NCBI GenBank assembly: GCA_040766745.1
Contig: JAXGPX010000001.1
Location: 187,950-251,949, forward strand
Direction: 5' to 3'
From: Bacillota bacterium
GTDB taxonomy: Bacteria > Bacillota > Sulfobacillia > Fermentithermobacillales > Fermentithermobacillaceae
DNA length: 64,000 nt
Shown: piece by piece, positions 16,514 through 52,910 of the stretch
How the letters are laid out: each line of letters begins with the position of its first letter
How positions within the stretch are numbered: position 1 is the first letter of the stretch
Notes under the pieces: generated by a model
What the model saw: the letters and a program-made list of their open reading frames with translations, nothing else
The model's database searches: none
Told to the model about the DNA's origin: nothing
Program-made: the position numbers and the translations under genes

Positions 16514-16699
16514 TGCCCACACCTCTCGCTTCAATCCCGTCCGGTTCATCTTATGTCACCGGTTCATATAATGCTTATAAGGTCTATGTGATGAATCAAG
16601 GAACATCTCCTTGGTTCACTGTATTCTGGTTATCCGCCCTGCTTTCTTGAGGCCGGGCACCGTGCACATTATTTCACAGCGAGAAAAGGAGCTAGAGCG

Positions 16700-19652: not shown

Positions 19653-19709
19653 AAGCACAATACGATGAGGCACTTATTGCTGGAGCGTACATAGGGGGAG
19701 GACTACTAA

Positions 19710-21149
19710 ATGAAGAAATTGGCTCAGGCCTTGGCGGTGGCTCTTATATGTATATTGTCTGTGGGATGTGCAGGCGGAGCAAAGTACAAGGCTGACGTAG
19801 TGGTAATAGGGGCGGGCGGTGCGGGGCTGGCCGCGGCCAATACAGCAGCGGACAATGGAGTAAAGGTAATCTTGATTGAGAAAATGCCCTTTGCAGGCGG
19901 AGCGACTACTCTGGCTGCCGGCTCTATTACAGGTACCGGAACCAAGCTTCAGACTGAAAACGGTGTAGAAGCTTCAGCAGAGGAATTTCAGGCTGAACTA
20001 GAGAGTGAAGCAGTATATGAATATGACAGGGAACTTGTATCTGCCCATGCTGGATACTCTGGCAAGGCCATTGACTTCATGGCTGATCTGGGAGTTGAGT
20101 TCTTCCCTGAACTTGAACAAGCTCCGTTTAGGCATAGAACAAAAGATCCGTACCAGGCGAAATTCGTTCAGCTTGCGCTGGACTCCTTAAAGAGCAAAGG
20201 CGGAGAGGCCCTTCTGAATACTAAGGCTACTGAGATATTGAAGGACAAAGACGGGTCGGTTTCAGGTGTCAAGGCCATATCTGATGGCAAGGAAATCACA
20301 ATAGCGGCAAAAGCCGTTATTATCGCTACAGGCGACTTTGGAGCAAATAAGGAAATGCTACCTGTCGAGTACAGAAATGCCCTCAATTTCGGCCCTGTCT
20401 CCAGCACCGGAGATGGTATCAAGATGGCCGAGAGCTTAGGAGCTGCCACTGTTAACATGGATAAGGTGGCACTCTGGGGCAATGGTATTGAGGCAGCCGA
20501 GGGGCTCGGTGAGTACAGCTGGGGCCGGCTTCTTTGTGAGTTTGGCGGAATTTACGTTAACACCGATGGGGTAAGGTTCTCTAAAGACGTTTTAGATGAT
20601 GAAGAGGTAGCCCAGGCAACATTTGAGCAAGAGCAGGCAGGCAAGTATGTTTGGGTGGTTTTTGACCAGAAAATCAAAGACGCTCTGCATGGGTTAGGTT
20701 TTCCTAGTGTTGTGGCAACCTGGGATGCAGCAAAAGAGGCTACAGAACTAGAGAAGAACCATAACGTAGCAAAAGCCGATTCGATAACAGATCTTGCAGC
20801 AAAGATTGGAGTACCTGCAGAAGCTCTTGAAGATACACTGAGCAAGTACAATTCCTATGTTGAAACTCAAAGCGATCCTGAGTTTGGGCGGCCTTTGTTC
20901 GCTAATCCCATTGCAGAAGGGCCGTACTATGCAATGATCCAGCGGGTGGGGATCTACCCGACAGTCGGCGGCTTGAAGATTGATGCAGAAGCTCGAGTGT
21001 TGAATACTTCAGGCGAGCCGATTCCAGGACTATATGCTGCAGGCGATGTCACTGGCGGAGTTAGCACTAACGGCCGTGACACTCTGGTTCCTGGCATGTC
21101 ATTTGGGATAATCGCAGGTGAAAACGCGGCTGAGCAGGCGAAGCAGTAA
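19710..21149 (+). CDS. FAD-dependent oxidoreductase of the fumarate-reductase/urocanate-reductase flavoprotein (FAD_binding_2) family, made as a lipoprotein (extracellular)
   Basis: Lipobox LSVGC. FAD dinucleotide motif DVVVIGAGGAGLAAA. C-terminal active-site-like region (GLYAAGDVTGG). Confidence 0.75.
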   Translation: MKKLAQALAVALICILSVGCAGGAKYKADVVVIGAGGAGLAAANTAADNGVKVILIEKMPFAGGATTLAAGSITGTGTKLQTENGVEASAEEFQAELESEAVYEYDRELVSAHAGYSGKAIDFMADLGVEFFPELEQAPFRHRTKDPYQAKFVQLALDSLKSKGGEALLNTKATEILKDKDGSVSGVKAISDGKEITIAAKAVIIATGDFGANKEMLPVEYRNALNFGPVSSTGDGIKMAESLGAATVNMDKVALWGNGIEAAEGLGEYSWGRLLCEFGGIYVNTDGVRFSKDVLDDEEVAQATFEQEQAGKYVWVVFDQKIKDALHGLGFPSVVATWDAAKEATELEKNHNVAKADSITDLAAKIGVPAEALEDTLSKYNSYVETQSDPEFGRPLFANPIAEGPYYAMIQRVGIYPTVGGLKIDAEARVLNTSGEPIPGLYAAGDVTGGVSTNGRDTLVPGMSFGIIAGENAAEQAKQ

Positions 21150-27600: not shown

Positions 27601-27654
27601 AAGGGTAGTTCTTCTCACGTTGTTTGTAGGATCAGGAAAGAGGAGATGGTTATA

Positions 27655-30600
27655 ATGCAGAAAAACTACAGGAGAATACGAAGGCACCTATGTATCCTAT
27701 TGCTCGTGTGCATAGTGTCTACCTTTCCTATAGTGACAGTACCGGTGTTTGCGGCAGAAGGTACCGGAGTCACTGTAACTAATGTTCCAAGCATGCTCTG
27801 GGGAGGGCTTGGGCAGTATGTTGAATACGAAATGGACGGCATAAAATACCGTACTGACACGGCTTCCAGTGCGATAAACCGGTTGGCTTGGAGTCGCATG
27901 ACACAGGAAGATCGTCGCAAAACTTATGATAGGTTGTTTACCACGGCTGCAAGAAAGGCTGCCTTCGGAGAAGATGGGTTTGCCGATATCGTAAGCTGGA
28001 TTCGTGAAACCAACGAATGGTTCAAAGCCAATAGGCTTTGGAAGGACAGGATTGCCAACCGGGATTACCCTGAGCTACATGCGGTATTTAGCGATTCGGC
28101 GTCTTTGAGTACCGTCTATTCAGATTGGGACACGTTTAGGCTCTACTCTATCCCGCAGAATGTACCTCCGCGTAAACTGGAAGTAGAAGAGTTTGATAGG
28201 GCGCTGGCGGACGTAGAACTAAACTATGGGATCGGGCGACAATTCTATCAAAAAGTAGTGGATATGCACGCTAAGAATATCGGTGCTGCTGTGTCCTTTA
28301 CCATAATGCAATGTACCCAGATGCTCAGTGACATGCTTTTTGTTCCCAGCGTAGTCCAGGGAGCAAGTGTTGCTACCTCCGGCATGTTTGCTGATGTGAC
28401 AAATGTATTGTTGCAAGTTGTTGGGCTTGACGGCGGTTCCATCGCCGAAAAGGTAAACAAAGCTCTTGAGGGAGAGTCGGTGCAACTTACCGTGGGAGAG
28501 CAAATCAAGCTTCGCGCCGCGGTGATTGACACCTACGTTATTCTTGCACAGCGGAGCAAGAATGATATGGACGCGAGCATGAATGCTTTGCGTGCTGCCC
28601 ATACCAAAATAGAAGAGTTGTCTCAGGCAATTGAATACTATGACCGGCAACTTGAGCTAGAGAAGCAGCAGGCAAAGAAAAACTACCAGACAAATCTGGA
28701 TGAGACTCTTGTCAGCCCTACGCCAACTGAGCCGGGAGAAAGCGATGAGGTTTACAGCACCCTGGCTTTTATGTGGAAGACAGAAGCAGAGCTTAAACGG
28801 GATCTGTTTCATAATAATTTCAACGAATGGCTGTCCGAAAACAGTATTGAAGATGGTTATGCGTACCCTCAGGCGGCAGAACTGGTATTTGCCGAAGTGT
28901 TGGCACAAAAGGCAGTCTTGGATCAAGAAGTTGCAGAAAAGGTGGATATAATCTGCGATAAGATCAAGACCGCTTACACCAATGCAAACGGAAAGGTAGA
29001 AGCGTTAGAAGCAGAGCTTGGCGGGCTGCAGAACCAAGTGAATTCCAACTTGCCAGAAGATGAAACTGATCTCATCAGGGTTCCCGTGGGGGATACCTTC
29101 TTTTACGGCACAGAAGTTTTCGCCCCTGAGCTTGAAAACTACGCTAATTCTGGGCGGGCATATGATGACTATTTCCAGGAACTACAGGCCCACATTTCTG
29201 AATATAAGACGAAAGTCGCTGATCTGTTGGCGAGTGTTAAGGCATTAAAAGACGGGACTTCGGGGTTCTACGGAGAGATCGAAAAAGATGTTCAGGATGT
29301 GATGCTTTATCTTGATCTACTGGACAGCCTGGCGGAAAATTATTCGACTTTATATCTCAATGCAGTTTGGAAGTTATACAATGACTCAGGCCAAGACATC
29401 GATCCAAACTACGATCAAATTCCTTTTATCAACCCGTATAATGATGATGAAGGAGCATACCGCACAAACGGTTTTGAGATAGCAGTTGATCAAAATTGCC
29501 TGTCGGCTGAAGTGTATACACCTGATGCATTAGCGGTCACTCGTCCAACTGGGGTATATGATCAAGCGTACACGTTGTATCAGGAACTCTCGGATATGGA
29601 AGAGGAACTAGATAGTGCATATTCTGCAAGCTTTCAAAATGATGCAGCTTACAAGGCGGGAAGAACAAAGTACTACGAGGAAATGGACAACTGGCTTTTG
29701 GCATACAAGACGCTAGAACAGAAGATGGCCAACGCTCTTGGTAAGATAAAGAGTATCACAGACGCTTACGAGGCGTCATGGGATGGTACTTTCTTTCTCG
29801 GAAGCTATGACTACATCAGTTATCAGCCTTACCTTTACAACACCGGTTTGGTATCTGTTTCCGCCTTCGACGTGGCGGGCTTGCGCGAACATATTCGCGG
29901 CGGCGGGAATACTTCATCCCTATACACAAAACTCAAGGATATTGAGCGCAAAGCGGAGATTAATGAAGCGGTGGCGGCGGACCTTATCGGGCAGATTGGT
30001 GCTCTAAACATTGAAATGGAGCAGATGAGAGATGATACACTAGACAATTACGCAGTAAGCAAGGGAATGCCGTGCAAGAATTTCTACTCCCTTCGAAGTG
30101 AGTACGGCCTTGACGATAGATGGGGCAATTTGACTAGAAGCAGCGACGACGTCTTGGCCTACTTCAACACCTGCGATATCCCCCAAATCTGCGATATTTT
30201 GCAGGGAGAAACCGATGACGTTGTCTTCATGCAAAACGCCATTAAGGAAATTCGAGGCTATCTTGATGCCGATACGGTGGCCACCGTTCCCGTCAGTAAT
30301 CGCCTGTACGACATTTACCGGAAGGCTACGGGCATTAAGGACATATATACCGGCGGCACCTACAACAATTATGGCCTTCTGACCGAAGCACAGCATACGG
30401 AACTTCTGTATCTGTATGCAAATCCCAATGATGCCGATGACATTTACAACACGATGAATTCCGTCCGGTACAAACACGAAGACGTAAGTTACACCTATCC
30501 GCCTTCACCACATGATGGTGTGGATCAATTTGGCCCTGTTGGGGAGCCCACTTCTACTGCGGCATTTCCTGGAACGATGGCGGTGCAGGCGCCCATCTAC

Positions 30601-33237
30601 CATCCCCTGGCCGTTGAAGCAAAAAGCATTACCGCAACGCTGTATGTCTATGATGCCGGCTGGTCAAAGGTTCAAACCCTAAGCGGTACAGAAGATTTGC
30701 TAGACGGGATTATTGACACGGGAAACGACATGCTTAGAATGTCTTTTACGGGCCTGGAAGACGGAAGGGATTATCGAGTGGACTGGGACATCGTCCATGC
30801 CCCTTATGGTACGGCAGAGCACGAGGAAGGAAACTACTACTTTACATATACCGCTCCTGTTGGAGTTTTTACTACAGTCGAACTGAATGAGGAGACTTAT
30901 GATTCTGCCAGTGTGGCCGTTACCAACAATTCTGGCGAAGTGCTTAGCGACAAGTATGTATATCTAGATGGCTATGACGAAGATGAAAACCTCGTTTTGT
31001 CACAAAAGAAGACGCTGAGTCCTCTGGATACGGGACAAACAACGACGCTTGAGTTCACCTTTGACGACGCTGTCTACACTGTTGAAGCCTGCGTTGAGGG
31101 CGAGGGAGGGCAAAGGCCGGGGGCCCCTGTCCGGCTGGAGGTTGAAGGCGGAGACAGTATAATAGCAGTCCCCGGAGTCGGAGAAGCAGCCAATGATTCG
31201 GTTCCCTTTACCGCCACAGTGTACGATCAGTACGGAGAGGTCTACGAGGGGGGAACCATCGACTGGAGCCTTTCCCCACAGACGAATGGCGTTTCCATCG
31301 GTCAAGACGGGGTTGTCACAGTGACAAGCGCAGCGAGAAATGTAATTAGCGATGACTTGATTTGCACGGTTACCGCAACCCTTCGCGGTACAACGGTTTC
31401 AGGTACGAAAGTTTTCACGACAACTATTGATATCGTGAGTGAGGATGTAGTTGTGGATTGGACAGCCGTTGAGGATATGATTGGCAGCGCAAGTTATACA
31501 TACGGTGATAGAGACGATAAAGCCGGCCCTCTTGGAGAAGGTGCGGCGGCTGCAGGTGATATTCCTCTTCAGGGAACGTTTTCCTACAAAGACCCTGAAG
31601 GGATAAGGAATTCAGGAGAGCAAGTCATTACAGTGATTTTTACTGTAACTACTGCAGGAGACTACCAGGGGTTACAACTGGAGCATGACGTTGCGGTTAC
31701 AGTAACTAAGCGGGGAATTACCGGTACCTTGATGATAACCGGAAAAGGTGCTGTGGGTGAAATGCTGACCGCTGTCTTCACCTCTGAAATCGGCCCGGAA
31801 GAATATGCCATTGTATGGTTATCCGGAGGGAGTCCGGTTGTAACAGCGCCAACCTATACCGTGGCAGCGGGAGACCGGGGTAAGACGATTACTGTAAGGG
31901 TCGTGGGCAAGAGAAACTATACAGGAGAAGTTGCAGGCGAGAACGGAATATCCATTCCTTCTCTTATTCCCGAAACACCCGGGACAGGCGGAGACGAAGG
32001 TTCACCATCACCTGGGCCACGTCAGCCAGAGAACGGGAACGATATCACTGCCGAAACAACATCCGGCACAATTACAACTGCCGTAGTCGACAGAGTCAGG
32101 CTGGAAACCTATATTGAAACAGCAGAAAGAGGTTCGGGAATCGTCATTACCATATCAGAAAATGACACCTCAACCGCCGAGATTCCGCTAGACACTTTTG
32201 AAACCATGGCGGAAAGGGAAATGACTCTGACATTGCAAAGTGGCGCTACAGCCATTAGCATTCCCTCTGCCTCCATAGATTTCGGCGCGGTGAGAGAACT
32301 TTTCGGACCGGAAGCAGAGTACGGCGACATCCCCGTCTCCATCTCCATTTCACAGCTTTCCCCTGGTGAAACGGCTGCGCTGCACTCGGCAGCCGCGTCG
32401 GAAGGGCTGGGAATTCTAGGTACTCCTGTTGTGTTCAGTGTTTCCGCATCTTTCAATGAAAAGACTGTTGAAGTCGCCAGTTTTAAGCAGTATGTACAAA
32501 GGCGTTTTGAGGTTACGCAGGAGATCGCGGAAAACGTTTCAACAGCTCTTGTTTTCCAAGAAGATAACACCTTCCGGCCTGTACCGACTTCTGTATGCTT
32601 AGAGAATGGCAAATACTATGTCATCGTGGCTTCCCGCACCAACTCGGCCTATGTGCTTGTATCCCATACTGTCTTGTTTGGTGATACAGGCGGTAGGTGG
32701 TACGAGGATGTGGCGAAGGAGATGGCAGGCAGACAAATCATCCGGGGTACTGGCAACAATACCTTTGCCGGAGACAGAGAGATCACCAGAGCCGAATTTG
32801 CGGCCATCATTGTCCGCGCTTTGGGTCTTGCTGAAAAAGGCGTATCTGCATTCAATGATGTACCCAAAGATGCATGGTATAACGGAGCGGTTGCCGCAGC
32901 GGCAGAATACGAAATCGTGTCTGGGCGGGGTGAAAACAGGTTTGATCCGATGGCTAAGATCACCCGTGAGGAAGCAATGCAGATGGTATTTAACGCCTCG
33001 AAGCTTACTCCGTTTAGTGGAGTGGAGGGAGAAGTCAACAGCGAGGCCTTCAGCGACTACGAAGCGAAGTCCCAATGGGCTGCGGAAGCAGTTGACTTCA
33101 ATCTGATCAACGGCCTGATTGTTGGTTCAAACGGCAAGATCAATCCGAAGGCAAACATAACCCGCGGCGAGACTGCTGCAGTTGTCTTGAGACTATTGCA
33201 AGAAGCAAACCTGGTGAATGATAGAACCGAAATGTGA
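27655..33237 (+). CDS. Giant (about 1860 aa) cell-surface protein: signal peptide, long coiled-coil N-terminal region, central Ig-like (Big_2-type) domains, and three C-terminal SLH (S-layer homology) repeats
   Basis: Signal peptide ...PIVTVPVFA/AEG. Big_2-like segments (e.g. FTATVYDQYGEVYEGGTIDWSLSP...VVTVTSAA). Three SLH modules near the C-terminus (FGDTGGRWYEDVAKEMAGRQIIRGTGNNTFAGDREITRAEFAAIIVRALGL / FNDVPKDAWYNGAVAAAAEYEIVSG / FSDYEAKSQWAAEAVDFNLINGLIVG). The second ATG (27655) has better RBS spacing. Confidence 0.8.
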   Translation: MQKNYRRIRRHLCILLLVCIVSTFPIVTVPVFAAEGTGVTVTNVPSMLWGGLGQYVEYEMDGIKYRTDTASSAINRLAWSRMTQEDRRKTYDRLFTTAARKAAFGEDGFADIVSWIRETNEWFKANRLWKDRIANRDYPELHAVFSDSASLSTVYSDWDTFRLYSIPQNVPPRKLEVEEFDRALADVELNYGIGRQFYQKVVDMHAKNIGAAVSFTIMQCTQMLSDMLFVPSVVQGASVATSGMFADVTNVLLQVVGLDGGSIAEKVNKALEGESVQLTVGEQIKLRAAVIDTYVILAQRSKNDMDASMNALRAAHTKIEELSQAIEYYDRQLELEKQQAKKNYQTNLDETLVSPTPTEPGESDEVYSTLAFMWKTEAELKRDLFHNNFNEWLSENSIEDGYAYPQAAELVFAEVLAQKAVLDQEVAEKVDIICDKIKTAYTNANGKVEALEAELGGLQNQVNSNLPEDETDLIRVPVGDTFFYGTEVFAPELENYANSGRAYDDYFQELQAHISEYKTKVADLLASVKALKDGTSGFYGEIEKDVQDVMLYLDLLDSLAENYSTLYLNAVWKLYNDSGQDIDPNYDQIPFINPYNDDEGAYRTNGFEIAVDQNCLSAEVYTPDALAVTRPTGVYDQAYTLYQELSDMEEELDSAYSASFQNDAAYKAGRTKYYEEMDNWLLAYKTLEQKMANALGKIKSITDAYEASWDGTFFLGSYDYISYQPYLYNTGLVSVSAFDVAGLREHIRGGGNTSSLYTKLKDIERKAEINEAVAADLIGQIGALNIEMEQMRDDTLDNYAVSKGMPCKNFYSLRSEYGLDDRWGNLTRSSDDVLAYFNTCDIPQICDILQGETDDVVFMQNAIKEIRGYLDADTVATVPVSNRLYDIYRKATGIKDIYTGGTYNNYGLLTEAQHTELLYLYANPNDADDIYNTMNSVRYKHEDVSYTYPPSPHDGVDQFGPVGEPTSTAAFPGTMAVQAPIYHPLAVEAKSITATLYVYDAGWSKVQTLSGTEDLLDGIIDTGNDMLRMSFTGLEDGRDYRVDWDIVHAPYGTAEHEEGNYYFTYTAPVGVFTTVELNEETYDSASVAVTNNSGEVLSDKYVYLDGYDEDENLVLSQKKTLSPLDTGQTTTLEFTFDDAVYTVEACVEGEGGQRPGAPVRLEVEGGDSIIAVPGVGEAANDSVPFTATVYDQYGEVYEGGTIDWSLSPQTNGVSIGQDGVVTVTSAARNVISDDLICTVTATLRGTTVSGTKVFTTTIDIVSEDVVVDWTAVEDMIGSASYTYGDRDDKAGPLGEGAAAAGDIPLQGTFSYKDPEGIRNSGEQVITVIFTVTTAGDYQGLQLEHDVAVTVTKRGITGTLMITGKGAVGEMLTAVFTSEIGPEEYAIVWLSGGSPVVTAPTYTVAAGDRGKTITVRVVGKRNYTGEVAGENGISIPSLIPETPGTGGDEGSPSPGPRQPENGNDITAETTSGTITTAVVDRVRLETYIETAERGSGIVITISENDTSTAEIPLDTFETMAEREMTLTLQSGATAISIPSASIDFGAVRELFGPEAEYGDIPVSISISQLSPGETAALHSAAASEGLGILGTPVVFSVSASFNEKTVEVASFKQYVQRRFEVTQEIAENVSTALVFQEDNTFRPVPTSVCLENGKYYVIVASRTNSAYVLVSHTVLFGDTGGRWYEDVAKEMAGRQIIRGTGNNTFAGDREITRAEFAAIIVRALGLAEKGVSAFNDVPKDAWYNGAVAAAAEYEIVSGRGENRFDPMAKITREEAMQMVFNASKLTPFSGVEGEVNSEAFSDYEAKSQWAAEAVDFNLINGLIVGSNGKINPKANITRGETAAVVLRLLQEANLVNDRTEM

Positions 33238-37334: not shown

Positions 37335-38409
37335 TGTTACCTTGGCTACCTTGAAATCCTGACCCAAATCAATTCTTCTGAGCGAGGTGCAGGCGCATGA
37401 AAGAGAAAACTTTCAAAAAGCCCATGTTTCAATTCGCGTAGAGGTTTGCAGTTTTGCACACGGTTACCTATTTGATATTTGGCATATTGTTTATGCTCCT
37501 CACTGACTATTTCGGAGTCTTTGCCAGGGATCCCCTTCTAAGCGCTGTCATGAAACCTTCAGATGCACTGTCTGTAAGACTCGCTGCGCCGGTCCAGATT
37601 TCGGATCTAGCCATGTCAAGCCTGTACTTGCCTGTTGGAATGGCACTGTATGGCCAATTGTGTAAATAGACACATTTGGTTGAGTTGTGCGACGCAAGTA
37701 GTCTATATCTATTGTGGAAGATATGTGGAACCGGTAATGCTTGTTGGCTTGGTATTTGAATTAACCACATGTTAAGAAAGGAGAAGACATGGGTGTATTG
37801 CTAGAGAAGGTTACGGGCCTGTATAAGATGGGAGCTATCAAGAGGAGCATAGCAGTCTGGCTTGGATTTCAAGTCGCTCTATGTCGCTGGCACATTCCCG
37901 GCAAAACAGTGGTCTGAGGTGAGGAAGTTAAAAGACATAGTATTTAGCGCACCAGAGAAAATGCTGTTTGGCGCAAGCCTGATCTTGCTCGTAGTATCTG
38001 CATATGTAGAGGCATTCCTCATAATCTTGATATAGAGTCCTCCCATCGCGTTCTCGCAGAGGATTGCACTGCCCTGACCTCAGAGCGACAATCCTCATGT
38101 CAGAATGTTACATTACTTTTCTGTTTCTCATGTGTTCTTGTCGAATTGGCACCTTATCTGCCGAGGCCATACATGGAACTAATCTACAGTGGGCAAAGTA
38201 ACTGAGGCATGGCCAAAGTTGGTTCGCATGTTAACTAAAGTGGGGTTTAGCTGGTCTCTGTTGTTACAGGGGACTTACATTTTGCCGTGTGTCCTGAGAA
38301 AGTTTTCACAATCACAAAATTTCTAATGGAACCATAAAACGCTAGACCTTATAATAGACAAGTGGTAAATTTATAGGCGAGGCAAAAGCTTCAGAAAGGA
38401 AGAGGGGAT

Positions 38410-39498
38410 ATGAAAAGAGCGCTACCTGTTTTGCTTGTACTTATGTTAGTTCTGGTTTCCATAGCAGGCTGTACACCCAAAGAGCCCCCGGCACCTGTAG
38501 AACCCGCTGCGCCTACTATTGCCAAGATAGGCCTTGGACATGTCACTAGCATTGCTAAATCAAAAGATCTTACAGTCGGGGAAGATGGGACTGTTACGCC
38601 TCCGGCGGCTCAGGTAGATACAGTGTTTGCAGGGGTTGCTTTCGACAAAGACGGTAAAGTCCTAAAGGTGTCCATCGATACTGCTCAGACAAAGGTCAAC
38701 TACGACAAGGATCTTAAGGTTACCTCTGATCTGTCTGCCCCTGGCAAGACCAAGGTCGAACTTGGAGCGGACTACGGTATGAAGAAGGTTTCAACAATCG
38801 GCAAGGAATGGTACGAGCAGATTGCCGAACTCGAGAAATGGATGATTGGGAAGACTGTAGACGAAATTAAGGGTATGAAAGTCAAGGAGCGCGACGCTTC
38901 ACATCCGTCAGTACCTGATGTACCGGAACTTACTTCTCTTGTTACCATTACTGTTCAGGATTATCTTGCTGCCGTTGAGGAAGCCCACAAGAACGCAGTT
39001 GAGGTTCCTGAAGGAGCTGTAAAACTAGGCCTTGGAAGCGAAATATCCATTGCCAAGTCCAGAGGTTATTCTCAGGCTGATGGAAAAGAGACCCTTCCCC
39101 AGGCCCAGGTAGATACAACTATCGCTGTCAGCGCTTTTGACAAAGACGGCAAGGTTGTACGTAACATTATCGACGTTGTGCAGACCAGAGTTGCCTACGA
39201 TAAAGAGGGCAAAGTAACCTCAGACAAGACTGCCGAGATTAAGAGCAAGGTAGAACTTGGCGAAGAATACGGCATGAAGAAGGTATCCACCATAGGCAAG
39301 GAATGGTTCGAGCAAATTGCCGAACTGGAGAAATGGATGGCAGGCAAGACCGTAGCCGAGATCAAGGCTATGAAGGTCAAAGAGCGTGACGCTTCTCACC
39401 CGTCAGTACCTGATGTGCCAGAGCTTACTTCCACTGTAACCATTACTGTACAGGACTACATTGCTGCTGTCGCCAAGTCTTTTGACAACGCCAAGTAG
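38410..39498 (+). CDS. Lipoprotein of unknown function built from two tandem copies of a ~165-aa module
   Basis: Signal peptide plus lipobox (SIAGC). The two halves align end to end. Their C-terminal 55 aa (YGMKKVSTIGKEW[Y/F]EQIAELEKWM.GKTV.EIK.MKVKERDASHPSVPDVPELTS) are nearly identical in protein but differ at many synonymous DNA positions. Confidence 0.7.
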   Translation: MKRALPVLLVLMLVLVSIAGCTPKEPPAPVEPAAPTIAKIGLGHVTSIAKSKDLTVGEDGTVTPPAAQVDTVFAGVAFDKDGKVLKVSIDTAQTKVNYDKDLKVTSDLSAPGKTKVELGADYGMKKVSTIGKEWYEQIAELEKWMIGKTVDEIKGMKVKERDASHPSVPDVPELTSLVTITVQDYLAAVEEAHKNAVEVPEGAVKLGLGSEISIAKSRGYSQADGKETLPQAQVDTTIAVSAFDKDGKVVRNIIDVVQTRVAYDKEGKVTSDKTAEIKSKVELGEEYGMKKVSTIGKEWFEQIAELEKWMAGKTVAEIKAMKVKERDASHPSVPDVPELTSTVTITVQDYIAAVAKSFDNAK

Positions 39499-39637
39499 TA
39501 CCTGGCTCAGAAAATAGATTTTCAGGTACTCCCCCGTCATCAGATGGGGGAGTACTATGTAGTCCCTGAAGTCCTAATTATGTACTCACGGGAGAAAGGG
39601 TATTGTAACTATGATGTTTATTCGCTTAACATAAAGA

Positions 39638-40774
39638 GTGGTGATAAAAGTGATAAAGACAGATTCGAAATCTTTCCTGAGGCTGATAAGCTTATTTGTG
39701 GCCGTCGCCATATCTGCTTCTATTAGCGGATGTCAATTGCTAAATACCCGAACCAGATACACTACTCCGGTACATTACACAGATAGTTTTTTCAATACGT
39801 TTGACACTATAGTCACTTTGGTTGCGTATACCGAGAACGAAGACGAATTTGACACGTATTATAAAAGGGTTTACACACGTATGCATGAGTTTCACCGGTT
39901 ATATGACATATACAACGACTACGAAGGTGTAAATAACATTAAGACAATAAACGACAATGCAGGTGTGAAACCGGTTAAAGTAAATCAAGAGATAATAGAC
40001 CTGATTCTCTTTTCAAAAGATTGGTACCGTCGCACCGGTGGAAAGGTGAACATTGCCATGGGTGCGGTGTTACGCATATGGCACGAGTACCGGCAGGAAG
40101 GACTTGATGATCCCGCCAGTGCCAAGTTACCTCCTATGGAAACCCTTCAAGAAGCTGCTAAACACACTGATATTGACAAGGTTGTTGTAGACACTGTAAA
40201 CAATACAGTGTACCTGGATGACAAAGAGATGAGGCTGGATGTCGGTGCTGTGGCCAAAGGTTACGCAACTGAAATGGTGGCCCAGGAGATAATGGCCATG
40301 GGGCTCAAATCAGGTATGCTAAGTTCAGGCGGCAACATACGGGCAATAGGGAAACCTCTCGACGGTTTGCGCGCACGCTGGGGCGTAGGTGTACAAGATC
40401 CCAGGCAGTCAATAGTATCTGAACAGGGCCTTCTTGACGTTCTCTATTTCAACGATGGGTCAGCAGCAAGCAGCGGGGATTACCAGAGGTATTACACTGT
40501 AGAAGGTAAGCGGTACCACCACATCATTGACCCTGAGACTCTTATGCCGGCAGAATACTACCGTGCAGTGACCGTGGTGACGGAGGACTCTGGGGTTGCC
40601 GATTTCATGTCAACAACCTTGTTTCTGCTGCCCTATACTGAAGGCAAGTCACTGGTGGATGATCTTGACGGGGTAGAAGCGTTATGGGTGATGGTTGACG
40701 GGAAAATAGAGGCCTCAGACGGTATGAAACTCATTATGAAAAGCCAAGGAGCTACAGGGAAAGAGCCTAAATAA
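39638..40774 (+). CDS. apbE: FAD:protein FMN transferase (ApbE family), made as a lipoprotein
   Basis: Lipobox ISGC. ApbE motifs (RLDVGAVAKGYATE, GMLSSGGNIRAIG). Confidence 0.8.
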   Translation: MVIKVIKTDSKSFLRLISLFVAVAISASISGCQLLNTRTRYTTPVHYTDSFFNTFDTIVTLVAYTENEDEFDTYYKRVYTRMHEFHRLYDIYNDYEGVNNIKTINDNAGVKPVKVNQEIIDLILFSKDWYRRTGGKVNIAMGAVLRIWHEYRQEGLDDPASAKLPPMETLQEAAKHTDIDKVVVDTVNNTVYLDDKEMRLDVGAVAKGYATEMVAQEIMAMGLKSGMLSSGGNIRAIGKPLDGLRARWGVGVQDPRQSIVSEQGLLDVLYFNDGSAASSGDYQRYYTVEGKRYHHIIDPETLMPAEYYRAVTVVTEDSGVADFMSTTLFLLPYTEGKSLVDDLDGVEALWVMVDGKIEASDGMKLIMKSQGATGKEPK

Positions 40775-42087: not shown

Positions 42088-42141
42088 AACTACCTGAAGG
42101 TAGACAACTGCCTGAAGAGTATGAATTGCCTGAAAGGTAGG
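42088..42141 (+). promoter_or_regulatory. Three phased 18-bp direct repeats (aaCTaCCTGAAGgtAg / aaCTgCCTGAAGagTA / aaTTgCCTGAAAggTAg) directly upstream of the RBS of the first gene of the membrane-protein operon
   Basis: Read directly at 42088-42141. The repeats are in phase with a possible 19-codon ORF (42085-42144, MNYLKVDNCLKSMNCLKGR) that lacks a convincing SD. Confidence 0.5.
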
Positions 42142-42149
42142 TGAACATT

Positions 42150-42923
42150 ATGACCATCGCAAAAGGACAGGTGTTTTCGACCATCACTTTGATCATCTAT
42201 TGTGCAGCTATCTTGATGATGATCTCCAGGGCTCGAAAAGGCATTAAGATCCCTGAACTGTATCAGGTTCCGGGACTGGATGCCCTCGATGAAGCCATCG
42301 GGCGTTGCACAGAGATGGGGCGGCCAGTTCACTTCTCACCGGGAATTGGGGGTGTTGATAACGCCCAGACCCTGGCGGCGCTGTCGATTCTTGGCTATGT
42401 AGCTCGCCAGTGCGCCAAGTACGACACTGACCTTATTGCTACTAACAGGATCACTGTGGTTTACCCTATAGCGGAAGAAATCGTAAAACAGGCTTTCATC
42501 GAGGAAGGGAAAGCTGGGAATTTCCAGCCGGAAAACGTCCGTTTCATTTCGGAAGACCAGTTTGCTTACGCAACGGGTGTAACCGGTATCATGCATCGCG
42601 AGAAGCCTGCAGCTAACCTGCTTCTTGGTGCTTTCTGGGCGGAGTCTCTTATCTTCGCTGAGGTAGGCGCTACTGCTGGAGCGATTCAGATTGCAGGTAC
42701 TGCCAACACGCACCAGATCCCCTTCTTTGTAGCAGCATGTGACTATGCTCTAATAGGCGAAGAGTTGTATGCTGCAAGTGCGTACCTCACGAAAGAGCCT
42801 ATCCTCATGGGCAGCCTTGTTGTTCAGGACTGGGGTAAGATGTTTGCAGCCGCCGCTATTATTATTGGCACTCTTCTGCAAACGGCAGGCGTGACCGCTC
42901 TAAAAGACATTATGGCCAAGTAG
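42150..42923 (+). CDS. Uncharacterised membrane-anchored protein (N-terminal TM, C-terminal hydrophobic region); first gene of a four-gene operon
   Basis: ORF 42141..42923. ATG 42150 preferred because AAAGGTAGGTG lies 6 nt upstream. No recognised domain. Confidence 0.55.
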   Translation: MTIAKGQVFSTITLIIYCAAILMMISRARKGIKIPELYQVPGLDALDEAIGRCTEMGRPVHFSPGIGGVDNAQTLAALSILGYVARQCAKYDTDLIATNRITVVYPIAEEIVKQAFIEEGKAGNFQPENVRFISEDQFAYATGVTGIMHREKPAANLLLGAFWAESLIFAEVGATAGAIQIAGTANTHQIPFFVAACDYALIGEELYAASAYLTKEPILMGSLVVQDWGKMFAAAAIIIGTLLQTAGVTALKDIMAK

Positions 42924-42995
42924 GTATGGTATCAACCACTATTGTTTTGAGATTAGTTCACATTGAAAGTGTTCCTATGAGAGGGGGGACAACTG

Positions 42996-43631
42996 TTGAA
43001 AAAGGAATTTCCAGTATTGATTGGGCTTCTCTTTGGCTTGTTCGTCATAATCGCCGTGTTTGTATCCGGTGTTCCAGGCCTTACTGAATGGAAAGACACA
43101 GTGGACGACTGGTTCTTGATGGCTTCGGCATGGGCAGTTGCAGTAGGCGTAGTTAACCTGACCCAGATTCATGGCAGGCGGGTTCAAATGAAGCGCGAGG
43201 GCTATGCATATAGTATATGGCTCATGGTTTGCATGTTTGGCATGGCATTCTTTGGTATCTTCATAGCCAAGAATGCAAATCACGCAGGCTGGAAGTTTAT
43301 GTACAACCAGTTAATCGCGCCAATGAACGCAACGGTTTACTCAACCCTGGTGTTCTATATCGGTGCAGCCGCTTACAGAGCCTTTAGGGTAAGAAACCTG
43401 GAAGCCAGCGTTCTTCTGGTCGCAGCTGTTCTCATGATGCTCGGCCGGGTGCCTCTGGGTAAGGTTCTTCTTGGCGATTGGGTCGGCGAGGCAGCCGACT
43501 GGATTCTCAACGTACCCAACTCTGCAGGTATGAGAGGAATTCAGATCGGCGCTACCCTGGGCGGTATTGCTACTGCTTTGAGGATTCTTGTTGGAATTGA
43601 GCGTGGCCACCTTGGTGGTACCGGTGAATGA
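42996..43631 (+). CDS. Uncharacterised polytopic membrane protein (211 aa)
   Basis: ORF with five to six hydrophobic helices, tightly linked in the operon. Confidence 0.5.
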   Translation: MKKEFPVLIGLLFGLFVIIAVFVSGVPGLTEWKDTVDDWFLMASAWAVAVGVVNLTQIHGRRVQMKREGYAYSIWLMVCMFGMAFFGIFIAKNANHAGWKFMYNQLIAPMNATVYSTLVFYIGAAAYRAFRVRNLEASVLLVAAVLMMLGRVPLGKVLLGDWVGEAADWILNVPNSAGMRGIQIGATLGGIATALRILVGIERGHLGGTGE

Positions 43632-43664
43632 TATCCGACTTCATGATAAGGGAGGTGAATCATA

Positions 43665-44483
43665 GTGTGGCAAAAACTGGCTAACATTGACAGGCGGGTT
43701 ATCTACGCTCTAATGATACTTGTAATTGCACTGTCGCTCATAAAGCCCGTAGGGCTTGCTATTGTACCGTCTCCAGAGACCAAGAGAGTATACGAATTTG
43801 TCGACTCTTTGCCTTCAGGCAGCATTGTGTATCTTGGTTTCGACCACTCTGCAGGGGGAATTCCTGAACTTATGCCTGCGGCCCAGTCGTTGGTTAGGCA
43901 GGGGTTCAGGAAAGATCTTCGCTTTGTATGCGCAGGTATGTGGGTTATGGCCGGAGATATGGCTGACACAGCCTTTTCCATTGCTAAAAATGAGTTTCCT
44001 GAGAAGGAATACGGTGTCGACTGGGTCAATGTAGGGTACAAACCCGGAGGCGAGGTATTGCTTCAGAAGATGCTTTCAAGCATTTACGATGCGGCTGTAG
44101 GGGTTGACCATTACGGCAATGACCTGAAAACTTTGCCCCTTATGGCCGAAGTTCCGACCATTAAGGATGCAGATGCGATATTCATATTTGTTACCGGTAC
44201 TCCCGGTGAGAAGGAATATATCAGGCACGTAACCTCACCTCATAACATCCCCTTCATAGTGTCTACTGTATCAGTAAGTGTGCCTGAACTGATGCCGTTG
44301 ATCCAGTCACGCCAGGTTTTGGCAGGAGTGCTCGGAATGAAGGGTGCAGCCGAGTATGAGGTTTTGGTTGGAAATCCCGGCAGCGCAACAGCGGGTATGG
44401 ACGCACAGTCGTTTTCCCACGCATTGATTATCTTGTTTATTATTCTTGGAAACCTGGGTTATATCTTGACCCGTGAGAAATAA
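43665..44483 (+). CDS. Uncharacterised protein with N- and C-terminal TM helices flanking a ~200-aa soluble domain
   Basis: ORF with an RBS (GGGAGGTG) upstream. No recognised domain. Confidence 0.5.
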   Translation: MWQKLANIDRRVIYALMILVIALSLIKPVGLAIVPSPETKRVYEFVDSLPSGSIVYLGFDHSAGGIPELMPAAQSLVRQGFRKDLRFVCAGMWVMAGDMADTAFSIAKNEFPEKEYGVDWVNVGYKPGGEVLLQKMLSSIYDAAVGVDHYGNDLKTLPLMAEVPTIKDADAIFIFVTGTPGEKEYIRHVTSPHNIPFIVSTVSVSVPELMPLIQSRQVLAGVLGMKGAAEYEVLVGNPGSATAGMDAQSFSHALIILFIILGNLGYILTREK

Positions 44484-44523
44484 CGCAAGCTTGGCCGTAA
44501 CGGCTGACAGGAGGTGAAAAACA

Positions 44524-45144
44524 GTGGATCTATTCGGTACCTGGCTTCAGGCTGTATTTACGATACTGCTGCTTTCAGTAGTATTTAAAGATAACCCAGC
44601 TTACCGTTTTGCCGAGAACACTTATGTTGGCCTGTATGCCGGCTACACCGTGGCGGTACAGTGGTTCAACTATATAAGGCCGAGCTTTCAGTTGAAGATT
44701 ATGCAAGAAGGCAAATGGTGGTATATTGTTCCCATCATTGTCGGCCTTATGATTTACACAAGGTATATAAAGCCCATTGCATGGGTCAGCCGGTATCACA
44801 TCTGCTTCCTATTGGGAATCGGATCCGGTTATATCTTGTCGACGACATTTAAGCCTATGTTTATCGACCAGATTAGGGCTACCTTCCTGCCCCTTTGGGT
44901 TGCAGGTGATTGGTGGAAGAGCGTTTCCAACATCATCTATGTTGTCGGCACCTTTTCGGCTCTAGTGTACTTCTTGTTTACCCTTGAGAAGAAGGGTGTC
45001 CAAGGTAAGATATCCGGCATGGGACGTTGGGTTATGATGGTAGCTTTCGGAGCAGCATTCGGCAACACTGTGATGGCCCGTGTATCATTGTTCCTTGGCA
45101 GAATGCAGTTTTTGCTGGGTGACTGGTTGAACATGATTAAGTAG
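44524..45144 (+). CDS. Uncharacterised polytopic membrane protein (206 aa)
   Basis: ORF with GGAGGTG upstream and multiple hydrophobic helices. Last gene of the operon. Confidence 0.5.
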   Translation: MDLFGTWLQAVFTILLLSVVFKDNPAYRFAENTYVGLYAGYTVAVQWFNYIRPSFQLKIMQEGKWWYIVPIIVGLMIYTRYIKPIAWVSRYHICFLLGIGSGYILSTTFKPMFIDQIRATFLPLWVAGDWWKSVSNIIYVVGTFSALVYFLFTLEKKGVQGKISGMGRWVMMVAFGAAFGNTVMARVSLFLGRMQFLLGDWLNMIK

Positions 45145-49287: not shown

Positions 49288-51126
49288 GTGAGCAGACTTA
49301 CGGTCTATACGCCAGATGATGCCGAAATCGTAATGGAACGTATGGTCCAGGAGATGGAGCGGCGATTGGCTGCCGCCCCGCCAGGTATATGCCCGGTGGA
49401 CATGGCTTCTGTTTTTTTGAGGCTTTGCCATGCTCAGACCTGCGGCAAGTGTGTGCCGTGCAGGATAGGGCTTAATCGGTTGGGGGACCTTCTGGACACA
49501 ATACTCGATGGCAATGGCGATGAAGAAACAATCAAACTGTTAGAAGAAGTATCTCAATCAGTAATGGATACCGCTGACTGCGTTATCGGCTCTGATGCTG
49601 CGGCTATGGTTTTGAGGTCCGCCAGAGAGTTTAAGCAAGATTATGTTTCACATATAGAAGAGGGGCATTGTCTTGGAACGTTTTCAGCGCCGGTTCCATG
49701 CCGCTCGGCATGTCCGGCAGGTGTGGATGTTCCAGGCTATATAGCTCTAATTAGGTCAGGCAGGCCGCAGGATGCTGTTAGGCTCATAAGGCGGGACAAT
49801 CCTTTTCCGTCGGCCTGCGCCCTTGTATGCGAGCATCCGTGTGAGACCCACTGCAGGCGTTCTATGCTTGATGACGCCATAAATATCAGGGGGCTTAAGC
49901 GGTATGCTGTAGAAGCTGCAGGAGATGTACCTGTTCCTGAGCCAATGCCATTTACCGGCAAGAAGGTGGCCATTATCGGCGGAGGGCCATCAGGCCTAAC
50001 GGCTGCATATTATTTGGCTCTAATGGGCCATGATGTAACAGTATTCGAAAAGCAGCCCAAACTCGGAGGCATGCTCAGATATGGTATTCCCGAATACAGG
50101 CTTCCCAAGAGCATATTGGACAGGGAGATCGAGACAATACTGAGCCTGGGAGTTACTGTTCATACCAATTTTGAAGTGGGCCGTGACGGGACGTTGGAAA
50201 GCCTGAAGAAGACCTACGACGCTGTATATGTTGCCATAGGTGCTCATGGAGATCGCAAAATGAGGGTCTCAGGCGAGGAAGCAAAAGGTGTAATTCCAGC
50301 TGTAAAGATGCTTCGTGACATTGCTTTGGACAACCCTGTGGACCTAAAAGGGAAAAAGGTAGTAGTTATAGGCGGTGGCAACGTCGCAATGGACGCAGCC
50401 CGTAGTTCTGTACGGCTTGGTGCGTTGGAAGTCAGTGTAGCCTACAGGCGTAGAATGCAGGACATGACTGCCCAGCGTGAGGAAATTGAAGGAGCCCTTG
50501 CTGAGGGTGTTGATATTCTTGAACTTATGGCCCCAGGGAAAGTCGAACAGGATGAGAATGGACAAGTCGCTGCAATATGGTTGCAGGAGATGACTGTAGG
50601 TGCAATAGACGCATCTGGAAGGCCTAAGCCTGTCCCATCCGGCGCTCCTGATCAGAGGCTTGCCTGTGATGTAGTCATTGTTGCTATAGGGCAGGACATA
50701 GAATCAGGGTTCCTGGCCAAGGATGGCATTCCTTGTTCAAGAAATGCAGTAGTTGCTGAGGACGACCTTTCGATTAAGGGAAGTTCCGGGATTTTTGCAG
50801 GTGGAGACTGTGTTACCGGCCCTGCTACGGCAATCAAAGCAATAGGTGCAGGTAAGGTAGCTGCCTTCAATATTGATCTGCATCTTGGAGGGCAGGCGCG
50901 TACTCCCGAAGAGGAGATTAATGTGCCTGCAGCAATTCCAGGAGACTTGTCTCCTACAGGCAGGGTCAATATGAGAGAGAGGCCCGGTTCTGAGAGAATT
51001 CATGACTGGAAACAGTTTGAGCTTAACATGGATTTCAAAGAGGCCCTGCACGAAGCCAGGCGCTGCCTCAGGTGTGACCACTACGGATCCGGTTCCATAG
51101 AAGGAGGTAGGCTTGCAAGATGGTAA
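49288..51126 (+). CDS. Electron-transfer subunit of the [FeFe]-hydrogenase: N-terminal NuoF-C-terminal-like 4Fe-4S region fused to a GltD-like (glutamate-synthase small-subunit type) FAD/NAD(P)-binding oxidoreductase
   Basis: Cys motifs CGKCVPCRIG, CRSACPAGVDVPGYIALIRSG (typical GltD N-terminus), dinucleotide motifs VAIIGGGPSGLTAAYYLA and VVVIGGGNVAMDAAR. Confidence 0.75.
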   Translation: MSRLTVYTPDDAEIVMERMVQEMERRLAAAPPGICPVDMASVFLRLCHAQTCGKCVPCRIGLNRLGDLLDTILDGNGDEETIKLLEEVSQSVMDTADCVIGSDAAAMVLRSAREFKQDYVSHIEEGHCLGTFSAPVPCRSACPAGVDVPGYIALIRSGRPQDAVRLIRRDNPFPSACALVCEHPCETHCRRSMLDDAINIRGLKRYAVEAAGDVPVPEPMPFTGKKVAIIGGGPSGLTAAYYLALMGHDVTVFEKQPKLGGMLRYGIPEYRLPKSILDREIETILSLGVTVHTNFEVGRDGTLESLKKTYDAVYVAIGAHGDRKMRVSGEEAKGVIPAVKMLRDIALDNPVDLKGKKVVVIGGGNVAMDAARSSVRLGALEVSVAYRRRMQDMTAQREEIEGALAEGVDILELMAPGKVEQDENGQVAAIWLQEMTVGAIDASGRPKPVPSGAPDQRLACDVVIVAIGQDIESGFLAKDGIPCSRNAVVAEDDLSIKGSSGIFAGGDCVTGPATAIKAIGAGKVAAFNIDLHLGGQARTPEEEINVPAAIPGDLSPTGRVNMRERPGSERIHDWKQFELNMDFKEALHEARRCLRCDHYGSGSIEGGRLARW

Positions 51127-52910
51127 AATTCTCTATTGACGGAAGGCCTTTTGAGGTTCCGGAAGGAACCACCATCCTTGCTGCTGCAAGGCAATCGCGG
51201 CTGAGAATACCTACCCTTTGTTACCTTGAAGGGATTAATGAAATAGGGGCTTGCAGAGTATGTGTTGTGGAACTGAAGGGTTCACACAAACTGGTAACTG
51301 CTTGCAACACTGTTGTGCAAGAGGGCATGGAAGTGCTTACTGTCAGCACCAGGGCTCGCCATGCCCGTAGAATGGCGGTTGAACTCTTGCTCACACAGCA
51401 TGATTGCAACTGTCCGACTTGCCCCAGAAACGGGAACTGCAAGCTTCAGAACCTGGCTCATGACTTGGGTGTACGTGATGTAAGACTTAATAAGGAATTG
51501 CCTTCTCAGAGAAAAGATGAAAGCACTCCTTCAATAGTCAGGGATCCCAAGAAATGCATTATGTGCTATAGGTGCGTAAGCTTCTGTGACAAGGTCCAGT
51601 CACTCGGAGTATGGAGAATATCAGGTACCGGTGCAAGGACTGCTATAGAGCCTGCGTATGGGCAGCGCCTCGGTGAATCGGATTGTGCTTTCTGTGGCCA
51701 GTGTGTCACCCATTGCCCAGTAGGGGCTTTGAGCGAAAAGGACCAGACAGATCGTGCGTGGGAACTGGTTTCAGACCCTGACAAGATTACAGTTGTTCAA
51801 GTAGCCCCTGCAGTTCGTGCTGCATGGGGAGAGGGTTTAGGAATGTCCCCTGAGGTAGCAACTCCAGGGCGCATGGTTGCAACCCTAAAGCACCTTGGTT
51901 TCAAGTATGTGTTTGATACTTGTTTTACGGCGGATCTTACGATAATGGAGGAAGGCACTGAACTCCTTGAGAGGCTTGGAGTAAAAGAGAGCCACCATAA
52001 GCCCGGCCCTCTGCCTCTTTTTACGTCATGCTGTCCGGGATGGGTCAGGTTTGCAAAGACCCAGTATCCTGAACTGGTGCCTAACATATCAAGCACTAAG
52101 TCTCCTCAGCAAATGTTTGGCGCAGTAGCCAAGACATACTATGCTCAGTTGCTGGGAGTGCCGGCTGACAAGATCGCAGTGATCTCAATAATGCCTTGCA
52201 CTGCAAAGAAATATGAAGCAGGGCTTTCTGTTATGAACCAGGCAGCCGCTGGGCAAGACGTTGACCTGGTTCTTACGACTCGTGAGCTGTGTGCCATGAT
52301 CAAGGAAGAGGGAGTACAGGCCGAAAGATTGGCAGAAGAAGAATGGGATACTCCTTTGGGCGTTTCAACCGGAGCAGCAGTAATCTTTGGAGCTACCGGG
52401 GGAGTAATGGAGGCAGCCCTAAGATCTGCATATTACCTGGTTACCGGTAAGAACCCTGAACCAACTGCATTCTCCGAAGTAAGAGGCCTTGACGGTTGGA
52501 AAGAGGCTAAATTCGTGCTTCCCGGGAAGACTCTGAGAGTAGCAGTTGCTCACGGTTTAGGGAATGCCCGCAAGCTAATTGAGGCCATAAAGCAAGGCCA
52601 GGCAGAATACGATTTTGTCGAAATCATGGCGTGCCCGGGCGGCTGCGCAGGTGGTGGCGGACAGCCGATCTGTGTCGACGATGAAGAACTGGCTGGAGAG
52701 CGGGCACAGATATTGTATGGGCTTGATGATCATGCAGATTTGAGGTTTTCTCATGAGAACCCAGCAGTTCAGGATATATACAAGGAATTCCTGGGCGAAC
52801 CTGGTTCTGAGATTGCCCATAAACTGCTTCACACCAAGCAGGGTAGTTGGGAAATAGCTACGGCTAAGCCGCGTAGGAAAAGGGTTTTCAACGCTGCTGA
52901 TTCCGATTAG
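51120..52910 (+). CDS. hydA: [FeFe]-hydrogenase catalytic subunit HydA with an N-terminal 2Fe-2S and ferredoxin-like FeS domains
   Basis: H-cluster signatures TSCCPGW, MPCTAKKYE, EIMACPGGCAGGGGQP. N-terminal 2Fe-2S (CYLEG...CRVC...C) and two CxxCxxCxxxCP motifs. Confidence 0.9.
   Translation: MVKFSIDGRPFEVPEGTTILAAARQSRLRIPTLCYLEGINEIGACRVCVVELKGSHKLVTACNTVVQEGMEVLTVSTRARHARRMAVELLLTQHDCNCPTCPRNGNCKLQNLAHDLGVRDVRLNKELPSQRKDESTPSIVRDPKKCIMCYRCVSFCDKVQSLGVWRISGTGARTAIEPAYGQRLGESDCAFCGQCVTHCPVGALSEKDQTDRAWELVSDPDKITVVQVAPAVRAAWGEGLGMSPEVATPGRMVATLKHLGFKYVFDTCFTADLTIMEEGTELLERLGVKESHHKPGPLPLFTSCCPGWVRFAKTQYPELVPNISSTKSPQQMFGAVAKTYYAQLLGVPADKIAVISIMPCTAKKYEAGLSVMNQAAAGQDVDLVLTTRELCAMIKEEGVQAERLAEEEWDTPLGVSTGAAVIFGATGGVMEAALRSAYYLVTGKNPEPTAFSEVRGLDGWKEAKFVLPGKTLRVAVAHGLGNARKLIEAIKQGQAEYDFVEIMACPGGCAGGGGQPICVDDEELAGERAQILYGLDDHADLRFSHENPAVQDIYKEFLGEPGSEIAHKLLHTKQGSWEIATAKPRRKRVFNAADSD

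Follow-up and report, generated by a model that had tools for sequence, protein, structure and literature searches.

The subject of this analysis is a two-gene locus in a Bacillota bacterium of the Fermentithermobacillaceae, lying in a window of 64,000 nucleotides (assembly GCA_040766745.1, contig JAXGPX010000001.1, positions 187,950 to 251,949 of the forward strand). A gene for a lipoprotein of 362 amino acids (aa) is followed there by apbE, the gene for a lipoprotein flavin adenine dinucleotide (FAD):protein flavin mononucleotide (FMN) transferase. The lipoprotein is an internal duplication of a long module related to the FMN_bind domain, and it is probably a two-FMN surface electron carrier that the neighboring ApbE modifies at a variant acceptor site, S-x-V-T. 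Proteins of this kind have already been described, in a recent class that is invisible to the domain databases, and the window lipoprotein is best explained as a member of that class, paired with its transferase. Two things were not found in the literature searched, an S-x-V-T acceptor running through a whole family and an experimental demonstration that FMN-bind2 domains carry covalent flavin.

The duplication is unambiguous. Local alignment of residues 38-196 with residues 204-361 scores 530 under BLOSUM62, and shuffled sequences reach 37 ± 7 (maximum 67, n = 300), which bears out the two ~165-aa modules seen in the initial annotation. The two copies share 71% aa identity and only 49% identity at third codon positions, with Nei-Gojobori estimates over 157 codons of 1.70 for synonymous divergence (dS) and 0.228 for nonsynonymous divergence (dN), a dN/dS of 0.13. 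Over residues 116-196 the copies are 84% identical in protein and only 54% identical at third positions (dS 1.47, dN 0.099, dN/dS 0.067). With synonymous sites near saturation and dN/dS this low, the earlier view of an old duplication held by purifying selection on the protein stands, and recent gene conversion between the modules is excluded. The numerous synonymous differences reported between the copies are likewise real, the strings quoted for them being exactly codons 122-131 and 287-296; the description of the module C-termini as nearly identical in protein was slightly generous, as there are seven differences across residues 122-189.

The lipoprotein belongs to a large family with almost no annotation. 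More than 1,456 homologues remain after clustering at 90% identity, labeled "hypothetical" almost throughout and otherwise "lipoprotein" or "major membrane immunogen," and a search with one module returned 1,191 representatives at E ≤ 1e-3 (50% clustering). Its members occur across the Clostridia and Bacilli, with Clostridium tetani among the carriers. Of 269 proteins counted, 222 have two modules, six have four, one has six, four have three and 36 have one, part of these last being fragments. Members with four or six modules include P0124 (991 aa), P0318 (975 aa, Fastidiosipila sp. HHT44218.1), P0128, P0137, and P0142, while P0319, at 1324 aa, may have more than six; in the multi-module members most modules carry D-L-x-A-S-V-T. 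A further protein, P0218, combines one compact, Pfam-recognized FMN_bind domain with two long modules.

Searches of Pfam, NCBIfam and the PDB sequences with the lipoprotein yield chance-level matches only. Structure prediction with AlphaFold2 gave confident models, with a predicted local distance difference test score (pLDDT) of 92.4 and a predicted template modeling score (pTM) of 0.86 for the two-module protein, the latter implying a fixed mutual arrangement of the modules, and a pLDDT of 95.6 for a single module. The relationship to FMN_bind emerges from profile-profile comparison, in which 522 modules, with module 2 as the master sequence, were aligned by hhalign to an FMN_bind alignment seeded by a canonical lipoprotein of the same window (19311-19652, motif DSVTGAT). 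The match has P = 5.6e-4 and a score of 26.1, with P ranging from 2e-4 to 9e-4 across runs; column-shuffled templates score 10.1 ± 2.0 with a maximum of 18.5, none of the 200 reaching 26.1, and the reversed template scores 12.7. In the alignment β2 and β3 are paired, a gap of ~33 residues follows, and E-L-T-S-x-V-T then falls on D-S-V-T-G-A-T, so that T344, and hence T179, lies on the Thr of DSVTGAT, with no insertion or deletion from there into the C-terminal helix. For relatives of the module that carry canonical motifs (see below), Pfam FMN_bind is the best match in 7 of 10 cases, below threshold and spanning the whole module. Because the profile match, the conservation of the acceptor, the canonical relatives and the agreement with the published FMN-bind2 subtype converge, the module is, to judge from its sequence, a remote and expanded relative of the FMN_bind domain.

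In its canonical form the site modified by ApbE reads D-x-x-[S/T]-G-A-[S/T]. Of this pattern, both motifs of the window lipoprotein (Table 1) retain positions 1 (acidic), 4 (Ser) and 7 (Thr), and they exchange Gly for Leu or Thr and Ala for Val. Residues E173, L174, S176, V178, and T179 are invariant among 67 homologues. Of the 522 modules, 497 have Thr and 25 have Ser at the acceptor column (T179/T344); 96% have an acidic residue, Glu or Asp, at position 1, and 84% have Val directly before the acceptor Thr, compared with 3% that have Ala. The degenerate motif of the family is [DE]-L-x-[SAT]-x-[VCA]-[TS]. Relatives with E values of 1e-37 to 1e-60 against the module have canonical motifs in this same column, namely DLKSGAT/ELKTSAT, DLISGAT, DLSSGAT, DLASGAT/DLASSAT, and DLLAGAT. 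The initial annotation had stated that the lipoprotein has no flavinylation motif. This is literally true, as the string is absent, but it appears misleading, given an invariant Thr at the homologous position and canonical motifs in relatives. Among all window open reading frames (ORFs) of at least 80 aa, the sole D-x-x-[ST]-[GS]-A-[ST] lies at nucleotide 19569. An alternative frame, D170-V-P-E-L-T-S176 with S176 as the acceptor, was rejected: the S176 column is Ala in 99 of the 522 modules and the T179 column is always Thr or Ser, and both hhalign and the canonical-motif relatives point to T179. In 47 of the 522 modules Cys stands directly before the acceptor Thr (e.g., DLKAGCT and DILSGCT, with P0184, P0186, P0232, P0243, and P0255 among the proteins), a recurrent form of the ApbE motif that places a thiol beside the flavin attachment point.

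Some departure from the canonical motif is reported to be tolerated by ApbE: according to a review, replacement of G by A or of A by V each still gives ~50% flavinylation, and D to A has only a minor effect (PMC12052999). Since the acceptor is invariant, the two proteins share an extracytoplasmic location and the apbE gene is private to the lipoprotein, ApbE most likely flavinylates T179 and T344. The changes at the Gly and Ala positions are also an argument for a competing explanation, that the lipoprotein is a degenerate FMN_bind protein which has lost covalent flavinylation and acts as a non-covalent flavin binder or as an accessory presenting FAD to ApbE, the clients of the enzyme lying elsewhere, for example at 19311-19652. 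The window does contain this canonical substrate and just one visible apbE in 64 kb, and targeted delivery of FAD to ApbE has been argued for (PMC9973259). A lost site is nevertheless unlikely to hold a column that is 100% Thr or Ser together with an acidic position 1 in 96% of 522 modules; there is also a continuous gradation within the family toward canonical motifs, every paralogue has kept an apbE of its own, and an FAD-presenting accessory leaves unexplained the replacement of PplA in loci of the Listeria type described below. Loss of flavinylation is thus considered unlikely.

The link to ApbE is conserved over long distances. The apbE gene lies directly downstream of the lipoprotein gene, as first described, and its product is a full-length match to PF02424 with a lipobox of its own (ISGC); some gene callers put its start at 39650. 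No terminator-like site was found on the + strand in the 139 bp between the two genes. An apbE homologue adjoins the lipoprotein gene in 73 of 80 loci sampled from Clostridia, Tissierellales, Paenibacillus, Brevibacillus, Fermentithermobacillaceae, and others. In 72 of the 73 it follows downstream on the same strand, no more than a few hundred bases away; in L035 it stands just before the lipoprotein gene. Two of the seven loci without an adjacent apbE are contigs that end at the gene, and the other five are mostly from Gudongella and Soehngenia. Such conservation argues for a functional link to ApbE, and the absence of conserved linkage, which the initial annotation had named as grounds for abandoning its interpretation, was not observed. 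The other neighbors in the window, an ABC-2 transporter, a GNAT protein and a DUF6754 operon, show no conservation beside the family, and a functional tie to any of them was dropped. The genome of a close relative has two such cassettes, every lipoprotein paralogue having its own apbE; that of paralogue P0004 is 66% identical to the window apbE. In most of the loci examined the cassette stands alone, with no partner reductase gene.

Three loci, L003 (9279-11493), L007, and L076, have two tandem apbE genes after the lipoprotein gene, one ~56-64% and the other ~29-31% identical to the window ApbE. All three loci also have a polyprenyl synthase gene; in L003 and L007 it follows the tandem pair together with eetB-like PF07456. 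The tandem genes could be transferases specialized for different acceptor motifs.

The breadth of this linkage also bears on a third explanation, in which the lipoprotein has nothing to do with flavins, being a solute-binding, structural or antigenic surface protein whose proximity to apbE is a mere conserved operon arrangement. The want of any significant match in Pfam, NCBIfam, PDB sequences or Foldseek would fit such a protein, as would annotations such as "major membrane immunogen." It is very improbable in view of the calibrated profile-profile match to FMN_bind in the correct register, the canonical motifs of relatives, and a 94% synteny with apbE that holds across distant orders, compared with 0% for any other neighbor.

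An electron-transfer role is suggested by the genes found beside the cassette in other genomes. In ~10 of the 80 loci it stands next to all or part of a gene set for Listeria-type extracellular electron transfer (EET). The products are a DmkA-like UbiA prenyltransferase, a DmkB-like polyprenyl synthase, and an Ndh2 of ~635 aa that has a membrane tail of the DoxD/DoxX type. A divergent UbiA - Ndh2 - polyprenyl synthase operon borders the cassette in L069-L073 and L078; to these genes L078 adds NusG_II and PF07456 (eetB), and in L003 and L007 PF07456 is accompanied by Ndh2. The eetB product is an FAD-exporting energy-coupling factor (ECF) subunit (PMC9973259). In these loci, ~10 of the 80, the lipoprotein family takes the place of PplA.

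Both proteins have lipoprotein signal peptides, and Gly20 and Cys21 of the lipobox of the putative carrier are each at least 90% conserved in 67 homologues; because both carry lipoboxes, they are expected to share an extracytoplasmic compartment. The two genes may then be regarded as a substrate-enzyme cassette acting at the outer face of the cytoplasmic membrane. The lipoprotein ApbE would take exported FAD and attach FMN through a phosphoester bond to T179 and T344, with E-L-T-S-x-V-T standing in for D-x-x-[S/T]-G-A-T. The two modules would pack as one unit with two flavins. Tethered to the membrane, this unit would carry electrons outside the cytoplasm, much as PplA does in Listeria. Electrons would come from a membrane quinone or an Ndh2-type donor and pass to extracellular acceptors or to secreted flavoprotein reductases.

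Several results weigh against this two-flavin carrier. The Pfam FMN_bind (PF04205) hidden Markov model (HMM) matches neither the whole protein nor either module at E ≤ 10, and Foldseek searches of the PDB with the full and single-module models returned nothing significant and no FMN_bind structure. The hhalign probability is just 23-45%, reaching 45% with distant modules only. The lipoprotein lacks a literal [S/T]GA[S/T], Gly being replaced by the bulky Leu or Thr and Ala by Val, and the literature searched contains no experiment in which ApbE modifies an S-x-V-T-like site. Within the window there are no Ndh2, DmkA/B, or EetA/B genes near the cassette, and the window's ApbE could mainly serve the canonical FMN_bind lipoprotein 19 kb away.

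The most conserved part of the module lies outside the acceptor motif. In DSSP assignments of the models an extra hairpin occupies residues 48-65 between β1 and β2, and residues 99-133 are inserted between β3 and α1. Within the latter insertion lies the signature K-x-E-L-G-x-x-Y-G-M-x-K-x-S-x-I-x-K-E-W-x-E-Q, which falls in the hhalign gap relative to FMN_bind. Eight of its residues, K115, Y122, M124, S128, I130, E133, W134, and Q137, belong to the 16 columns with the highest conservation in the 522 modules. The insertion could form part of the flavin pocket, an interface between the modules or a separate ligand site. That K115, Y122, M124, S128, W134, and Q137 are absent from compact FMN_bind domains, and that the cassette is usually found without a partner reductase gene, would also suit a doubly flavinylated unit that is itself an enzyme, for example an extracytoplasmic reductase of ferric iron, free flavins or quinones with the insertion as its substrate site. 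No catalytic motif or ligand site was identified in the module, however, and the conserved residues may equally line the flavin site or an FMN-bind2 inter-module interface; an enzymatic role of this kind is quite unlikely. A more far-reaching form of the carrier hypothesis is that S-x-V-T is a genuine non-canonical acceptor, efficiently modified only by its own co-evolved ApbE, and that K115...Q137 is a new functional site around the flavin. Such co-evolution would account for the private apbE of each paralogue and for the tandem apbE genes, and we regard this combination as possible if rather doubtful.

The history of the duplication differs with depth in the family. Among close homologues, module 1 is nearer to module 1 of the window and module 2 nearer to module 2 in 101 of 119 proteins, with an identity of 0.70 between like modules against 0.62 between unlike ones. 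Since like modules group together, the duplication is older than the subfamily of close homologues. Among distant representatives, identity within a protein (0.51) exceeds that between proteins (0.41-0.44), and the orthologous pattern is found in only 22 of 102 proteins, which points to repeated independent duplications or episodic concerted evolution deeper in the family. A possible cause lies in pseudo-symmetric pairing of the two modules.

Proteins flavinylated by ApbE serve as extracytoplasmic electron carriers in roughly half of all bacteria. Surveys of them rely on Pfam FMN_bind and on [S/T]GA[S/T], and the lipoprotein family, with at least 1,191 representatives at 50% identity, escapes both. 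If its members are two-flavin ApbE substrates, these "hypothetical" genes acquire a testable function, and a PplA-like surface carrier would be present in many anaerobic Firmicutes even where no Listeria-type EET locus is annotated. If S-x-V-T is a genuine acceptor, genome mining by motif or Pfam systematically misses a family of more than 1,000 sequence clusters, part of the remaining genomes with "orphan" apbE genes could be accounted for, and the definition of the ApbE acceptor motif would be widened, a point that also bears on flavin-tagging technology.

Table 1. Coordinates of the lipoprotein-apbE cassette and of other features in the window
Feature	Position	Strand	Basis
Lipoprotein gene, two long FMN-binding-type (FMN-bind2-like) modules, 362 aa	38410..39498	+	ORF list
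Signal peptide and lipobox LVSIAGC, lipidated Cys21	38410..38472	+	Read from sequence
Module 1, residues 36-200 (165 aa)	38515..39009	+	Internal alignment
Stretch of highest conservation in module 1, K115...Q137, in the β3/α1 insertion	38752..38820	+	Conservation in 522 modules
Variant flavinylation motif 1, E173-L-T-S-L-V-T179, predicted FMN acceptor T179	38926..38946	+	Conservation, hhalign
Module 2, residues 201-362 (162 aa)	39010..39495	+	Internal alignment
Module 2 counterpart of the conserved stretch, residues 280-302	39247..39315	+	Family-wide conservation
Variant flavinylation motif 2, E338-L-T-S-T-V-T344, predicted FMN acceptor T344	39421..39441	+	Same basis as motif 1
apbE, lipoprotein FAD:protein FMN transferase	39638..40774	+	PF02424 E = 1.4e-65, full length; NCBIfam ApbE 2.2e-25
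Terminator-like hairpin upstream of the lipoprotein gene	38255-38272	+	
FMN_bind lipoprotein, motif DSVTGAT	19311-19652	+	
FAD_binding_2 lipoprotein, fumarate/urocanate-reductase-like	19710-21149	+	
HycI-type maturation protease, near the NiFe hydrogenase	16028-16549	-	
SpoIIP and SpoIVA	2558-3736 and 10076-11605		

Elsewhere in the window, the FMN-binding and flavoprotein lipoproteins mentioned in the initial annotation are indeed present. The FMN_bind lipoprotein gene is directly upstream of that for the FAD_binding_2 lipoprotein, and both come just after a pair of NiFe hydrogenase small and large subunit genes (16700-19128). This arrangement may be an extracytoplasmic H2-linked flavin reductase module. 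Its FMN_bind lipoprotein is a canonical client for the only ApbE visible in the window, and the pair at 19311-21149 together with the NiFe hydrogenase are possible partners of the cassette, with no direct link between them. Immediately 5' of the lipoprotein gene, ~1 kb (37335-38409) holds neither an ORF that reaches 90 aa nor an Rfam match; small ORFs of 42-134 aa are called there, differing among gene callers on otherwise identical contigs. A riboswitch or other RNA element in this interval was considered and rejected, as Rfam at the gathering threshold gives only a tRNA at 25067. Among the remaining genes, a 1863-aa protein (27646-33237, +) has SLH domains only at its C-terminal end, the other ~1,700 residues being without a Pfam match. 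Four co-directional genes at 42141-45144 (+) encode DUF6754 (E = 1e-95) followed by proteins of 211, 272, and 206 aa without Pfam matches, at least two of these three looking membrane-embedded, and the run is common to all four contigs with an identical lipoprotein. At 49288-52910 (+), the genes for a NuoF/GltD-like iron-sulfur flavoprotein (612 aa) and a [FeFe]-hydrogenase large subunit (596 aa) overlap, the first running into the start of the second, which suggests an electron-bifurcating or NAD(P)-linked hydrogenase of a spore-forming anaerobe.

Among known systems, the Pfam FMN_bind domains of NqrC, RnfG, Clostridium perfringens CPE2226 (PDB 3O6U) and the window protein at 19311-19652 share with the lipoprotein module an order of β-strands, a helix, an acceptor loop and a C-terminal helix. 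In both, the acceptor Thr stands just ahead of that last helix (TITVQDYIAAV compared with TVTSEGFKAAI), in what is predicted here to be the same extracytoplasmic ApbE setting. The window module differs in having ~70 extra residues per domain, in giving no HMM or Foldseek match and in its changed Gly and Ala positions. Multi-flavinylated proteins (Meheust et al., 2021, PMC8238504), including SaFMN3 and CbFMN4 (PMC10339131), likewise have repeated domains and flanking apbE genes, and the family described here includes members with three, four and six modules. In the characterized proteins of the SaFMN3/CbFMN4 type, however, compact DxxxGAT domains are strung like beads on flexible linkers, whereas a single rigid unit is predicted for the window modules (pTM 0.86).

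The closest description is that of FMN-bind2 (Huang, Meheust, Barquera & Light, 2024, mSystems, PMC11334425), a subtype recognized from AlphaFold models and found by BLAST. Its domains are ~160 aa long, compared with ~120 aa for FMN-bind1, have inserts at β1/β2 and β3/α1, and have no InterPro entry; they usually occur in even numbers (two, four or six), their β-sheet faces pairing into a pseudo-symmetric two-flavin unit. The exemplars are NTW96865.1 (two domains) and WP_312031774.1 (six domains). Flavinylation of FMN-bind2, at one flavin per domain, is a prediction in that work. The window modules, at 165 and 162 aa with acceptor Thr residues 165 aa apart, have insertions at β1/β2 and β3/α1 relative to compact FMN_bind, and the family is extracytoplasmic, mostly even in copy number, and without Pfam or InterPro recognition. 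Thus, as far as the predicted models show, the window module matches FMN-bind2 in every feature compared, the match being to the description and not to an exemplar sequence. It is set apart by the acceptor site, called "[S/T]GA[S/T]-like" for FMN-bind2, while most of the window family has Val before the acceptor Thr. A search for the published 6xFMN-bind2 protein, seeded by the six-module P0124, gave a Fastidiosipila protein as the nearest in NCBI and not the Hujiaoplasma exemplar.

In its proposed function the lipoprotein most resembles PplA of Listeria monocytogenes and Cad, the cAD1 precursor lipoprotein of Enterococcus faecalis, which act in Listeria-type EET with the ApbE protein FmnB (PMC8906456; PMC7074142; PMC9973259). 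Like these, it has two tandem domains of the flavin type, as predicted here, and an adjoining gene of the ApbE family. PplA carries its flavins on T143 and T265, a spacing of 122 aa that points to compact domains, and has canonical SGAT motifs. The window lipoprotein, in contrast, has long modules, a spacing of 165 aa and S-x-V-T, and no adjacent EET genes in the window; on sequence grounds it is no orthologue of PplA.

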